From positions 1 through 64,000 of the forward strand of contig JAZRKN010000011.1 in assembly GCA_045646345.1 (NCBI GenBank): a stretch of DNA of 64,000 nucleotides, in the 5' to 3' direction. The translations under genes and the position numbers were made by a program. Positions 14,330-20,235 of the stretch are shown here, piece after piece. Origin of the DNA: Candidatus Scatovivens sp. GTDB lineage: Bacteria > Bacillota > Clostridia > TANB77 > CAG-508. Below the pieces are notes generated by a model that made no database searches, was not told the origin of the DNA, and saw only the letters and a program-made list of their open reading frames with translations. The stretch's first letter is position 1. Each line of letters begins with the position of its first letter.

Positions 14330-14353
14330 AACAAAAAATAAGTAAAAATTTTT

Positions 14354-14377
14354 AAGAGGCGAGAAGCCTCTTTTTTT
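14354..14377 (+). terminator. Intrinsic terminator of the par operon
   Basis: AAGAGGC-GAGAA-GCCTCTT followed by a T run. Confidence 0.75.
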
Positions 14378-15375
14378 ATGTTTTATGTGCTAGAAAACAA
14401 ATTATACTATGAGCAACAATAAAATGTCTTAAAATTGATTTTCACGCTTTAAAAATACATATAAATTTTATATAAAAAGTGAAAAATTTTTTAAAATATG
14501 TGAAAGAAAATTAAAAAAAAGAAATTTTTATATAAAAAATATGGTGTGGATAAAAAAAATAAAATGTAGAATTTTTTTATTTTTTTTAAATAAATTAAAA
14601 ATAAATTGTAAAAAAATAAGTAGAAAATATAAAAAATAATAAATTTAGTTAAAAAATATATAAAAAGATAATAAAATAATAAAAATATCCAAAAAATAAA
14701 ATAATATTTTTTTGTTTTTGGGATGCTATATAGAAATTATATAAATTTTAAAAAAGTAAAAAAAGCTTTAAATCAATGCTTTTAGGGTGTGGAAAAAATA
14801 AAATAAGAAAAAAATAAAATTATAAAAAAGAGAAAATATATAAAAAGCGTATTAAAAAATTGAAATAATTATGTTTTTAACAAAAATTTTTAAGAATTTT
14901 ATAAAAATTAAGAAAAAATAAGAAAAAAATATTTTGAAAAAAATATAGAAGTGAGAAATACCAAGGAGAATCCGCTTTTTTAGAAAAGAAAAAAATAAAT
15001 AAAAATATTTTTATTTTTGCTAAAATTGGAATAAAAAACAAAAAAATATACTATTTAAATTATTTATTTTTAATTTTAATATTGTATTTTTTTAAAAAAG
15101 ATATATTTATTTAATAAAAATATAAAAAATAAATAAAAAAATAGAAATTTTTTATATTTTAAAAATCTTGAATATAACAGATTTAAAAAGACTGAAAAAT
15201 AAAGGGTTTGATGTATGTGGAAAAATATTTTTCTTAATTTTGAAGGGATTTTAATATAATTTACTTATTTTTTAAAAAAATTGAAAAAATATCTTAATAT
15301 AAAGAGGTAAAAGACATGAAAATTTATAAATTTTTGATCAAAAATAAAAGATTTTTTAAAAAACAAAAAAATTTG

Positions 15376-15405
15376 TTGACAAAGTAAATAGTAATATGCT
15401 AATAT
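15376..15405 (+). promoter_or_regulatory. SigA-type promoter for the tRNA-Ser pair
   Basis: TTGACA 15376-15381 and extended -10 TGcTAATAT 15397-15405. Confidence 0.7.
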
Positions 15406-15433
15406 ATATGTGTTGTTGATGAAACAGCCAAGT

Positions 15434-15525
15434 GGAGAGGTGGTCGAGTTGGTTTATGGCACCAGTCTTGAAAATTGGCGTAGGTTTGTAGCCTACCGTG
15501 GGTTCGAATCCCACCCTCTCCGCCA
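15434..15525 (+). tRNA. tRNA-Ser(UGA)
   Basis: GGAGAGG/CCTCTCC acceptor stem, anticodon loop CTTGAAA, long variable arm, GGTTCGAATCC, encoded GCCA end. Confidence 0.97.
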
Positions 15526-15528
15526 AAG

Positions 15529-15594: not shown

Positions 15595-15687
15595 GGAGAT
15601 TTACCCAAGTGGTTGAAGGGGACGGTTTGCTAAACCGTTAGGGTTGCGTAAGTGGCCGCGAGGGTTCAAATCCCTCAATCTCCGCCA
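15595..15687 (+). tRNA. tRNA-Ser(GCU)
   Basis: GGAGATT/AATCTCC acceptor stem, ACGGT-TTGCTAA-ACCGT anticodon arm, long variable arm, GGTTCAAATCC, GCCA end. Confidence 0.97.
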
Positions 15688-15717
15688 AAAGACAGCTGAT
15701 AAGGCTGTCTTTTTTTG
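15687..15717 (+). terminator. Intrinsic terminator after tRNA-Ser(GCU)
   Basis: AAAAGACAGCT-GATAA-GGCTGTCTTTTTTT. Confidence 0.8.
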
Positions 15718-18700
15718 TTATAAAAACAATCGAAAGAATTATTTATTTTTGCTAAAATGAATGAAAATAAGTATGTGGAAAAGTATAACAAAAGCTACAA
15801 TTTCAATGCTTTGAGAGGAAAAAGAAAAAGTAGGGTGTTAATAAAATTTTTTAACAAATTTGGGGTTATTTTTCTTTTAAAATTTAAGCTTTTTTTGGGC
15901 ACAAAAAATACGAAAAAATTTTTTTCTGTTTTTTTATTAAAAAGGAAAAAAATGGTTAATTTTTATAAAAAAATAGTAATTTTTAGTAAAAATTAACTAA
16001 AAATTATGAAAAAATTGATTTTTAAATTATATTTAGAGAAGCAAATTTATTAAAAAATAAAAGAAAAAAATTAATATAATTTATAAAAATGCTGAAAAAT
16101 CAATCTTTTTTTTAAATGAAGACAAAAAAATATTTTTTATATTTATTTTTTTTGAAGTCAAAAATTCTAAAAATCAAATATTTTATTAAAAAACTTTATA
16201 AAATATAACAAAAAAGCTTTAAAAAAAGTTAAAATATAGTTTTTTTTATTATATTTTTGAAGAAAATATAGAACTCAAAAAGGAGCAAAGCCTTTGGCTA
16301 CAAAAGAATTAAGGAAAATGTGAATGGAATTTTTAAAAATTATAGACTTATAAAAAATCAAAAAAATAAAAAAATTTATTTTTTAAAATGAAAATTTAGG
16401 TTTTTTTTATAAATATTGATAAAAAAATGTACAAATTTGTGTTTTTTTTATAAAAATACTAAAAAAAATAATGCAAAAGTATAAGATTTTTTTAGAAAAT
16501 TCAAAGATAAATCGTTTTATAATAATGCGAAAAGCCTTTAAATAGAGAGTTTGATGAATTGCCGTTAAAAATAAAAAATAGAAATTTTACGATTTTTTAG
16601 AAATTAAAATATAATTTTTTGGAGCTGTAATCGAAGAAAAATTATAAATTTTTTTGAAAAAGTGGGGATAAAAAAGAGATTTTTTTATAAAAATGACAAG
16701 ATAATTTGAAAATAAAAAGCTTGCGAGGATTGAAAATTAGGCATTTTTATATTAAAAACATGAAATTATATTAATGAATAAAATAAAATTATAAAATTTT
16801 GTATTATTAAGGAGATTAAAATAGAAAAAATATAAAAATGTTAATAAATTTGTAGAAAATTGTTTTATAAAAATAATAAAAATAAAAGATTAATAAGTCA
16901 AAAATTTATAATAAATTAAAGAAAAAAATTTAATTTTTAACTAAAAAAATTGAATTAAAAACATGGTATTATGAGTATAAAAAATAGAAAATAAAAGACG
17001 GGAAATAGTTGGGAAATAAAGAGTATAGAAAAAGTATTTTTTATATTTTAAAAACAAAAATTATGAGAAAAAAATAAAGCAAAAAAGAAGAAATATCTAA
17101 AAGTATAAATTAAAAAAATAAATTTAGAATATAAAAAAATATATAGATCTAAAAACAAAAAAATATAATTTTTTATTTTTTAAAAATTAATAAAAATAAA
17201 AAAAATCGAAGTAATTTTTTTTAAAAATAAAAAATAATTAGAATGAAAAAATATATAAAAAATAAAAATGCAGTAATAGCAAGCAAAAGAAGCTTTTTTG
17301 CCAAAAAGCAAAAAATATATTAATAAAAATAGCGATAATAAAAAATAAGAAAAAAGAAATTTAAAAGAATATGAAAATGTGATGTATTTTAGTTTCAATT
17401 TTTTATTTGAAATCTATTCAAAAAATATTAAAAAAAATATGAAAAAAGTGAAAATAAAAAAACGATAAAGCTCTGGGAAATAAAGGGTTGAAACATATTT
17501 TTGTACGATAAAAAATAGTGTACATAAAACAGTAAAATGTATGATTTTGATAGTGAAAAATTTCAAAAATTTAGCTAAAAATTTTGAAAAAAATATCGAA
17601 AAAAAACATGAAAAAAAGTAAAAAAATATTAATTTTTTTATAAAAAAATTAAATATTAAAAAAGTTTTTTTATAAAAAATGACGTAAAAATATAAAGAAA
17701 AATTTAAATGTATAAATCAAAAAATAAAAAACACTGTAATTTCAATGCTTTGATGCTTTTTGTTTAAAAATATAGGTAATCTAAACGTTTTTTGTGTGAT
17801 CCAAAAATAAATAAAAAATGAAAGAAAAAAATATATATGTAAAAAGTTTTTTTTATAAGAAAATTCAAGCTTTTTAATAATAAAAATTAGCTATTTTTTA
17901 TTATTAAAAAATAGCATTTAAAAATGGCTGTAACTCCTGGGAAATAAAGATAATAAGGGGTGAAAAAATGCTCGAAAAATAATAAAAAAAATAATATAAA
18001 ATTTGGCTAAAAATTACTGTTTTTTTGAATAAAAAAATAGTAAAAAAATGAATAAAAAAATAGTTTTTTTATTTTATTTTATTAAAAAATGATAAATAAT
18101 TTCATGATAAAATTAGTTTTTTTAAAAAAATTAACGATAGAAAAAAACACTACATAATAGTCGAAAAAAATCTTTCTCTTGGTGCTCTAAACAAATCGGG
18201 AAAAAATATGTTTTTTTGACTGTATTAAGGTACATTTTAAATTCTATAAAAAATTAGAAACTTAAATTTGATAATTTTTAAATTTTTTGTATAAAAAATG
18301 AAAGAAATTTTCTCTTCAAAATAGTTGTTTTTTGTGTACTAGAAAAATGGGCAAAAAGCTTGGGAAATATAAGATTTGAAAGACGAAAAATAGATGTTTT
18401 TTTAAACACAAAAAATTACTTATTTTTATTAAAAAATTATTCAAAAAAATGACAAAAAAGACTATAAAAAATGAAAAAAATCTTTTTTAAAATGTACTTT
18501 TTTTCTTTAAAATTTAGATAAATTTATTTAAATAATTTTTATATTTATAAAAAACAGATTAAGAAAATAATAAAAAAAGTTATAAAATAACCTGTAATGG
18601 CTGATATATATAGGTATTTAGGCTTTTGATATAAAAATGAAGAAAAAGTCTTTTTTTAATTAAAAAATTAGAAATGTACAGAATATATAGATTAACTAAT

Positions 18701-20132
18701 TGGGGATTATTTTCTCAAAAAAATATAAATTAATTTGAAAAAATATAACTAAAAAATAGAAGAAATTATGATAAAAAACTATACAAAAAAATTTTTTAAA
18801 AGTATGGGAAATAAAGGGTTTGAAAGAATAAAAAATAATATTTTTTTATTAAAAAAATACACGTTTTTTTGGAAGTTTTTTTATAAAAAAAACAACGAAA
18901 AAATGTCTAAAAATGTATGAGAGAAAAATATAAAAAACTGAAATTTTTGATTTTCTTTTTCTTATAAAATATAAGAATATCGTGTTTTAAAATAGAAAAA
19001 TAAAAAAGTAGAGTATAAAAAAATTTAATATTTATATATAAGAAACATCTAAAACTTGATTTTAATAGGTTTTTGGAGGATTTTATGTTTTTTTGATTAT
19101 TTAAGAATTTATTGTATAAAAAGATAAAAAAATTAAAATTTTAAAGAAAAGGTAGATTAAAAGTGGAAAATATTTTGTACTTATTTTATAAAAATGATTA
19201 ATAAATATTTGATTAAATATACAAAATTATATAAAAAAAGTGGTGCGTAGTATAGTAAAAATATTGATTTTTTTATCTTATATATACCTTGGGATAGAAG
19301 GGATTAAATGAAAAAAATAAATGCAAGAAAATTAGAATTTTTTATATTAAAACTTGAGTTATTTATTAAAAGATATTATATATGTTAATCTTAAATTTAA
19401 ATAAAAAAAATGTAAAAATATGACATTTTGTTTTTTAAAAAAAATATAAAAAATAAAATAAATAATAAATTTTTTTAATGAAAATTAAGAAAAAAAATCA
19501 TTTTATTATAAAAATATAACTTGGATATAATTTTTATTGTAATTTTTATAATAAAAATTATAATTTGCTTAGATTTTGAAAAAAATCAAATCCTTTTAGC
19601 TGTAGCTTTTGATACTAAATTTATATAAGAATCGACTTTTTAAACCAAATTTAGAATGATAAAGAATCTGAAAACGAAAAATTGGATATAAGAACGGTTG
19701 ATTTTAAATTGATTAATGTAATATTATAAAAAAAGTATAATTGTATTGGCAATAAAACAATTGTATTTTAAATATAAATAATCCAAAAAATATGTTTTTT
19801 TAGATAAAAATTAATTCTCGCAAAGCACAGGGAAATAAAAGGAAGAACATTTTTTTAATAATATTAATATGTGATCGACATGAATTAACATAATTCATAA
19901 TGTATAAACTAAAAGGAGATTCATAAAAGAGTAAAAAATATTTTTGTATTGTAATAATTTATATAAAAAGGATATAAATTTTATTGTGAAGAAAAATGAA
20001 AAAAATAAAAAAATGAAAATTAAAAAAATTTTTTGAATTTATAAAAAATTATCATAATGAATTTAATATATGTTAATAATAATTTATTTTAAATGATAAT
20101 AAATAAAATAATAAATAATGATTTAATATAAT

Positions 20133-20180
20133 AAAACAGGCGATTGAAAATCGATTTTAAAGCGATTTTAATTGCCTGTT
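20133..20180 (-). terminator. Hairpin terminator downstream of the CoA-activase gene
   Basis: AACAGGCGATT-G-AAAATCG...CGATTTT-AATTGCCTGTT inverted repeat with a T tail on the minus strand. Confidence 0.6.
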
Positions 20181-20235
20181 CATAAACGTATTCGAATTTA
20201 TATAATTTTTGCTTAAAATTGATTTTAAGGCAAAA

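Follow-up and report, generated by a model that had tools for sequence, protein, structure and literature searches.

A regularly spaced, one-strand array of a motif also present in oriC, in an AT-rich non-coding tract near the replication origin of Candidatus Scatovivens sp.

The tract and its surroundings

We have analyzed a stretch of 64,000 nucleotides (nt) from Candidatus Scatovivens sp., an uncultured bacterium of the gut which belongs to the Clostridia (GenBank assembly GCA_045646345.1, contig JAZRKN010000011.1, C11 in our numbering, positions 1 to 64,000), which is called the window in what follows. It contains an AT-rich non-coding tract of 5.9 kb, found directly past the parA-parB-DUF4446 genes and 11–17 kb away from oriC, the origin of replication in the dnaA-dnaN spacer. 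The tract carries a short motif, repeated at regular distances and always on the same strand, and a copy of this motif is also found in oriC. The host assembly has 1.79 Mb, 27.5% GC, 19 contigs and a completeness of 96.7%. No other stretch of at least 2 kb in this assembly is below 19% GC. The genes and main features of the locus are the following:

2033–3148, − strand: dnaN
3468–4814, − strand: dnaA
11250–11969: rsmG
11407–11422: parS-like site TGTTTATCGTGAAACA inside rsmG, the only one in the genome at up to 2 mismatches, common to several genomes of the genus
12117–12950: parA
12953–13795: parB
13808–14329: DUF4446 gene
14330–20235, + strand: AT-rich non-coding tract, from DUF4446 to the convergent activase gene, 15.7% GC past the tRNAs
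15434–15525, + strand: tRNA-Ser(TGA)
15595–15687, + strand: tRNA-Ser(GCT), followed by a terminator hairpin at 15687–15713
20236–24588, − strand: BcrAD/DUF2229 coenzyme A (CoA)-enzyme activase, convergent to the tract

The motif array

The core of the motif is GGGAAATA. Seven copies of this sequence are found in the tract, all on the + strand, and 70 in the whole genome. The window contains 11 copies, against 2.75 ± 1.75 in 100 shuffled sequences, none of which reaches 11. When an order-3 Markov model is trained on the tract and used as background, the most over-represented 7-mer is GGGAAAT. A first-pass annotation of this DNA had described an array of the motif, and its enrichment holds against both backgrounds. 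The sites in the tract are listed below:

15194–15211, + strand: variant GAAAAATAAAGGGTTTGA, 2 mismatches to the 18-mer
15799–15814, + strand: second motif AATTTCAATGCTTTGA, with an exact copy at 17738–17753 and a variant at 14769–14784; its ortholog in the closest species (L136) lies before the tRNAs
17000–17028, + strand: two overlapping core copies, GGGAAATAGTTGGGAAATAAAGAGTATAG
17475–17492, + strand: motif GGGAAATAAAGGGTTGAA
17939–17956, + strand: motif GGGAAATAAAGATAATAA
18362–18379, + strand: motif GGGAAATATAAGATTTGA
18806–18825, + strand: motif GGGAAATAAAGGGTTTGAAA, a 20-mer exactly as in oriC
19290–19307, + strand: degenerate copy TGGGATAGAAGGGATTAA, in phase with the array
19830–19847, + strand: motif GGGAAATAAAAGGAAGAA
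18341–19290, + strand: two adjacent units (18341–18806 and 18785–19290) with a collinear alignment, the trace of a tandem duplication

The phased set is formed by seven sites (17011, 17475, 17939, 18362, 18806, 19290 and 19830): six copies of GGGAAATA and one variant, at 19290. The gaps between them are 423–540 bp, with a coefficient of variation (CV) of 0.078, a regularity which was not matched by any of 200,000 random placements. Shorter periods are less clear. The first-pass annotation also suggested a test for peaks at ~225/450 bp. A half-period of ~230 bp appears only as a marginal peak in a periodogram of GC content (z 6.0, close to the 95th percentile of the maxima in shuffles), and lag autocorrelation, a poorly calibrated method, gives inconsistent peaks at 850, 263 and 448 bp in the window.

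Eleven strings had been grouped as type A. All of them are present, with the spacings that were given. Three are weak (14767, 16094 and 16537), being loose matches without the GGG core. Two others, 15194 and 19290, are variants. Type B is not a class. Only three copies with up to 4 mismatches are found on the + strand (14769, 15799 and 17738), when 2.8 are expected, even if the exact 16-mer common to 15799 and 17738 does exist.

A more complete description of the motif is obtained from 29 core sites in 11 tracts. It has an S-rich (G or C) patch at positions −14 to −9, AAA at −8 to −6, enrichment in C at −4 to −2 and T at −1 in 22 of the 29 sites; then come GGGAAATA, A or G, and enrichment in G at +10 to +12. 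This pattern agrees with the form AAAGC-n-GGGAAATA-AAGGG described previously.

Exact intergenic copies of GGGAAATA (GGGAATA core) are also found in the window at 24644, 39837 and 41229, all on the + strand. One of these three is ~30 nt upstream of the TTGACA-17-TATAAT promoter of an open reading frame (ORF) at 39918, and is preceded by AAGCTTTTGAT, like the copies in the tract. None of the 11 window copies is inside a long ORF.

The motif in oriC and the DnaA boxes

GC skew changes sign around 4–5 kb. Together with the boxes, trios and AT-rich DNA in the dnaA-dnaN spacer, this switch locates the origin there. The names "DnaA-trio" and "basal unwinding system" or "unwinding module" for parts of this spacer (oriC2) are carried over, on our assumption, from Bacillus subtilis. 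The elements related to the origin are:

3149–3467, − strand: dnaA-dnaN spacer (oriC2), with DnaA boxes, a box pair, a C-rich cluster, TAATACTAATACTACT trios and then an AT-rich end
3221–3240, − strand: oriC copy of the motif, GGGAAATAAAGGGTTTGAAA, 20 nt identical to 18806, ~4 nt before the box pair, the GC cluster and the trios of the unwinding module
14545–14553, + strand: perfect DnaA box TGTGGATAA, kept in the closest species
14788–14796, + strand: DnaA box TGTGGAAAA, 21 nt past site 14767
15216–15224, + strand: DnaA box TGTGGAAAA, 22 nt past site 15194
15774–15782, + strand: DnaA box TGTGGAAAA, just past the tRNA pair; a similar box is found past the tRNAs in the closest species

The oriC element is conserved. 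An alignment of spacers shows TAGGGAAAT exactly in 22 of 30 genomes of the genus, at a fixed position ~95 nt before dnaN, and weaker versions of the motif are found in other genera and families of the order. Beyond the tract and oriC, the 11-mer has five copies, each inside a long ORF. The DnaA boxes of the tract are grouped at its origin-near end: at up to one mismatch, there are four in 1.24 kb (14545–15782), all on the + strand. There is an additional match with one mismatch at 16663.

We have also considered a second origin copy upstream of dnaA (TGGGAATCAA, ~4900). It was rejected, as it is not conserved among 25 genomes of the genus.

Content and composition of the tract

The two tRNA-Ser genes are the only RNA genes of the tract (Rfam, gathering score). 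It has no ORF of at least 80 amino acids, the longest ones being 79 (+ strand) and 72 (− strand), which bears out the lack of any credible ORF noted in the first-pass annotation. Of three small ORFs tested, none has a Pfam match. A search of Rfam 15 with E values up to 1 only adds matches below the gathering score on the opposite strand of the tRNA genes, the repeat units having no match, and RNA folding gives z-scores of −0.05 and 0.23, no better than shuffles; a structured RNA is not supported by these results. A hairpin around the motif (CTT...AAG) is equalled when the flanks are swapped (P = 0.27).

Between 14000 and 20600, sigma-70-like promoter patterns are depleted (47, against 64.2 ± 7.0 in shuffles). 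None of them is found upstream of the motif, and the interior of the array has no terminator. In the same region, runs of AAAA show a phasing of 10.75 bp (z 6.2). This phasing and the depletion suggest intrinsically curved, promoter-poor DNA.

Four-fold degenerate sites in this genome have 8.5% GC (51% A, 40% T), ordinary intergenic DNA has 24.5% and the tract 15.7%. The tract is thus nearer to the silent-site value than ordinary intergenic DNA is. Unconstrained DNA of this lineage should be expected to drift toward about 10% GC, so the AT-richness of the tract requires no special selection. From their composition, the spacers between motifs look like unconstrained DNA. The AT bias of the host genome at four-fold sites is among the strongest.

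The tract in related genomes

All the relatives we have compared are metagenome-assembled genomes (MAGs). Because they are kin, they do not count as independent cases, and the support given by counts across species is overstated. A similar tract past DUF4446 is found at the same place in 12 genomes of the same genus whose contigs continue. It measures 2.7–6.9 kb, lies past DUF4446 and the tRNA-Ser pair and, where checked, extends up to the activase gene. None of four sampled genomes from other families of the order has a tract. Eight stretches were taken from other genera of the same family: six have no tract, one is too short, and in the last an AT-rich stretch comes 5 kb further on. DUF4446 was matched in 21 same-genus genomes, and in 11 of these less than 1.6 kb of contig follows the gene. 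Such ends would fit short-read assemblies which break at the tract; the feature is therefore probably under-represented in MAG catalogues. Misassembly does not seem to be a general explanation, as the tract is found inside long contigs of relatives, including a chromosome assembled with hifiasm (L175).

The most informative comparison is with the closest species (L136), whose DUF4446 protein is 88% identical and whose DnaN is 99% identical. Its tract has only 54% identity with that of the window, which is the background level, except for the tRNAs, a terminator and one DnaA box. Nevertheless, GGGAAATA is found in it at 2391, 2795, 3271, 3738, 4153 and 4598, all on the + strand, the last five 404–476 bp apart, with a variant island, GGGATTTAAGGG, near 5060, also on the + strand. 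In the sister species, then, the spacers have been randomized but the motif has not, and it is likely to be under selection, as far as can be judged from these sequences.

The orientation of the motif is also conserved: relaxed matches over 12 tracts are found 44 times on the + strand and 4 times on the − strand. In the tracts of 15 relatives (74.9 kb, window excluded), GGGAAAT ranks first among 140 permutations of matched composition, with 22 copies on the + strand and 1 on the − strand, in 10 of the 15 tracts, against a median of 3 for the permutations. Tied in second place is the DnaA-box core GTGGAAA (20 on the + strand, 0 on the − strand, in 9 of the 15 tracts). Without the closest species, GTGGAAA is first and GGGAAAT third.

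More distant relatives have arrays of a different kind. In L175, 5.5 kb with 6–15% GC are found in the same syntenic position. Here TGCGGAATA followed by A or G appears every 702–824 bp (10395–15041), a period of ~770 bp, and two sub-types alternate, which gives a super-unit of ~1.55 kb. The oriC element and the array of this genome both read GGAATA, with two A's, a hint that the two sequences may vary together. In L189 (12200–18400), whose DUF4446 is 51% identical, there are four copies of a well-kept tandem unit of 1096 bp with TGGAAATAAATG. Each unit consists of a purine-rich block of ~550 bp (22–24% GC) and a spacer of ~500 bp (8% GC). It has no ORF and no Rfam match, and its fold z-score is −0.05.

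The super-period of ~450 bp proposed in the first-pass annotation is consequently not universal. The periods of ~770 and ~1096 bp suggest that the spacing is inherited from the duplicated unit and is not structurally required. In the window, units 18362 and 18806 are collinear duplicates (pairwise Z 7.8), while other pairs mostly have Z below 3. When eight units are aligned with MAFFT, the mean column identity is 49%, with no common blocks outside the motif. Spacers had been described as not conserved, which is true in general but not for these two duplicates. Along with the young units of L189 and L175, they show that arrays grow by tandem duplication. A scaffold had been preferred to a duplication as an explanation, and here only part of the claim stands: the array arose by tandem duplication, which is mostly old.

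A possible role in the control of replication

A regular array on one strand, with the same motif in the origin, is likely to be an array of binding sites which would help control or organize the start of replication. The suggestion of a protein-binding scaffold or a replication-control locus near oriC fits the motif in oriC, the DnaA boxes and the array in the sister species. In more specific terms, we propose that the tract may be an origin-proximal sink or tether for DnaA, for another origin-binding factor, or for both. We would give this reading a probability of about 0.37.

The locus is built from diverged tandem duplicates of ~450 bp, each of which has retained one copy of the motif, with the core TGGGAAATAAAG. 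Its origin-near end has the co-oriented DnaA boxes, and past them come 7–9 single copies of a second oriC element, which according to this proposal are separated by long neutral spacers. A protein which reads GGGAAATA would bind the tract and would also act at oriC. The array might titrate or tether this protein, tempering initiation or tuning the firing of the origin. The protein could be DnaA itself, in a weak binding mode, or a separate factor. The spacers would be mostly unconstrained, and the period would come from the unit which was duplicated.

Several observations weigh against such a role. Some concern the motif itself. By manual comparison, it agrees with the common DnaA box of the genus, TGTGGAAAA, at only 5–6 of 9 positions, which makes its binding by DnaA doubtful. 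The base before GGG also differs: oriC has TAGGGAAAT, while tract copies mostly have T (22 of 29). The TTTGA tail is limited to some of the copies in the tract. L189 has an oriC element, GGGAGGTAAG, which is unlike its array motif. Other observations concern distribution. Elsewhere in the genome, GGGAAATA is found between genes at ~20 positions, several of which are in the context of a ribosome-binding site, and the density of sites, ~1 per 450 bp, is far below that of known titration loci. The tract is absent from the locus in at least two congeners (G012 and G043), exact GGGAAAT is missing in 5 of the 15 relatives' tracts, and even the relaxed motif set has no copy in 2 of 12 (L045 and L041). 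The locus is dispensable in some relatives.

Other explanations

The tract might also be a functionless satellite. A unit of ~450 bp would have been amplified by unequal crossing-over beside the tRNA-Ser pair and would have decayed to neutral composition; the motif would persist through re-amplification or gene conversion, and not by selection for binding. We consider this unlikely, even if a good part of the evidence fits. The GC content of the tract (15.7%) is closer to that of four-fold sites (8.5%) than ordinary intergenic DNA is (24.5%), the 18362/18806 duplicates are still recognizable, and L189 and L175 have young tandem units. In addition, the length varies (2.7–6.9 kb), the tract or the motif is missing in some congeners and each lineage has its own period. 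Against this explanation stand the survival of the motif in the sister species amid spacers with background identity, its first place among 140 permutations in 15 other tracts, and the conservation of the element inside oriC. Several kb of useless DNA would also be unexpected in genomes of 1.3–2.2 Mb, and the tract recurs syntenically in distant lineages.

A second alternative is that the motif marks tiny expression units, which would be expressed individually; it would be either the beginning of a very short ORF (NTG-GGA-AAT-AAr, "MGNK...") or one of the two ends of a small RNA. In 22 of the 29 core sites, an ATG, TTG or CTG ends on the first G. The sites in L175 read ATG/GTG-CGG-AAT (MRNK..., 8–14 codons) and those in L189 ATG-GAA-ATA. 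Some sites have a purine-rich stretch 7–10 nt upstream, and G is enriched at the third-codon wobble position. Nevertheless, the frames have 3–55 codons, with a median of 13 when 7 are expected by chance, and the motif itself fixes 3–4 of these codons. Past the motif there is no conservation, and 7 of the 29 sites have no start codon. For the same reasons, we have rejected arrays of conserved small ORFs or of type I toxin-like genes. In L189 the frame is shifted with respect to the DNA motif, the oriC copy is preceded by TAG, and the upstream element is C-rich, unlike a Shine-Dalgarno sequence. The lack of sigma-70-like promoter patterns before the motif, their depletion in the region, the fold z-scores (−0.05 and 0.23) and the empty Rfam search up to E 1 all point in the same direction, and expression units appear improbable.

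Slightly less probable still is a purely physical element, in which gene-free, easily melted DNA would serve as a runway for sliding ParB clamps or for SMC loading, or as a sink for negative supercoils near oriC, the motifs being secondary (bends or roadblocks). The location suits this idea, directly past parA-parB-DUF4446 and 2.9 kb from the only parS-like site in the genome. So do the depletion of promoter-like sites, the AAAA phasing at 10.75 bp, the lowest GC of any long stretch in the genome and the fact that AT-rich tracts are more widespread than the motif. However, ParB spreading in studied species is generally known not to need gene-free DNA, the composition requires no selection, and the oriC motif and DnaA boxes are left without explanation. 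Moreover, other families of the order have several parS sites beside parAB and no tract.

A centromere-like platform for ParB had been proposed in the first-pass annotation, and it is not supported by our results. The genome has a single protein with a ParB_N domain and no Noc. Its specificity residues, counted manually from an alignment of the helix-turn-helix (HTH), are R, T, N and G, which correspond to the parS type. According to PMC7383237, R and G mark parS binders, and the specificity for the Noc-binding site (NBS) corresponds to Q, K, K and R. Canonical parS sites are scarce in the genus, with 0–5 per genome at up to 2 mismatches (0–3 for controls), yet a perfect or one-mismatch parS beside parAB persists in some congeners. 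Other families of the order have 4–9 parS sites clustered beside parAB, some of them in arrays of ~100 bp; for example, G027 has two arrays with spacings of ~99 and ~107 bp (C11:52515–55892). In another relative, G033, parS sites are found at C7:42289–44076. GGGAAATA would be the right half of the 16-bp NBS. The string tatttccc occurs once in PMC7383237. No inverted left half, and thus no palindromic 16-bp site, is found at any of the seven GGGAAATA sites, and the best full NBS match, at 17931, has 3 mismatches. A variant centromere, with GGGAAATA half-sites as loading sites for the single ParB or for a Noc since lost, is hardly credible for these reasons, in spite of the position of the array beside parAB and the scarcity of parS.

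A few other candidates were discarded. An iteron array of a replicon does not agree with a spacing of 423–540 bp, nor with the neighbours, DUF4446 and the activase, which include no initiator gene. Attachment-site repeats derived from tRNAs do not fit well: by eye, the likeness of the motif to the tRNA-Ser T-arm is only loose, and copies are also found upstream of the tRNAs and in oriC. Promoters for sigma-B, F, H, 54 and extracytoplasmic function (ECF) factors, and sites for Spo0A, AbrB, WalR, IHF and Fis, compared by eye as consensus sequences, give no convincing fit.

Comparison with known systems

The closest known systems titrate DnaA. According to PMC3245932, six clusters of DnaA boxes are found in B. 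subtilis beyond oriC, most of them near the origin, and initiation is early when all six are deleted; datA titrates DnaA in E. coli. Our tract resembles these loci in being non-coding and near oriC, with several co-oriented candidate DnaA boxes, at a lower density, and elements common with oriC; it would likewise restrain initiation. Known clusters are short intergenic regions of a few hundred bp with dense boxes, whereas the tract has 5.9 kb, with one site per ~450 bp. Most of its sites are not DnaA boxes but the second oriC element, and its binding by DnaA is putative.

Another possible parallel is found in iteron control arrays distant from the origin. The P1 incA locus and the 39-mers of Vibrio chromosome 2 act by titration or handcuffing of the initiator. 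They share with the tract a set of co-oriented direct repeats of an origin sequence, placed at a distance. Iterons are packed at tens of bp and have a dedicated Rep gene, while the tract has a spacing of 423–540 bp, no rep gene and a single copy in the origin. Tentatively, the tract could be described as an "origin satellite" of several kb kept by this lineage of gut Clostridia with small genomes, a single-site tandem array ~11 kb from oriC, which might buffer or tether a regulator, or serve a non-canonical mode of DnaA, and so set the timing of initiation. By analogy, and with similar reserve, it might be a chromosomal counterpart of the iteron control loci of plasmids.

Clusters of ParB-parS or Noc-NBS sites resemble the tract in their position beside parAB, and its 8-mer is presumably one NBS half-site. 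Unlike them, the tract has non-palindromic sites, a genome without Noc and a ParB with parS-type residues.

We have not found any description of such a tract in open-access papers or bioRxiv. In the same sources, there is nothing matching on oriC motifs or AT-rich tandem tracts, nothing on DUF4446 and, by title or abstract, nothing on the genome structure of Scatovivens. Streamlined genomes of 1.3–2.2 Mb seldom retain several kb of non-coding DNA, and here a gene desert persists syntenically in several species and lineages. What is conserved in it is limited to DnaA boxes and an oriented array of the element which adjoins the unwinding module of the origin. Binding of an initiation factor by the array, if it takes place, would represent a new layout for the control of chromosomal replication, in which sparse single sites are separated by long neutral spacers, and would also draw attention to a conserved, unstudied oriC element, TAGGGAAAT, in Clostridia.

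Minor observations

In some relatives, the matches to dnaN (G019, C5:25476–26589) or dnaA (G009, G011, G012 and G043) are in two pieces or contain stop codons, which may be due to frameshifts or to assembly errors in DNA rich in homopolymers. G005, the closest of the genomes with a G number, has a second, divergent DnaA-like match with 47% identity (C70:141–1445), which may be contamination or a copy from a mobile element. Finally, the activase gene has at its 3′ end (20132–20180) an inverted repeat, ACAGGCGATT ... AATTGCCTGT, which the closest species has kept. It is probably the terminator of this gene, marking the right edge of the tract.

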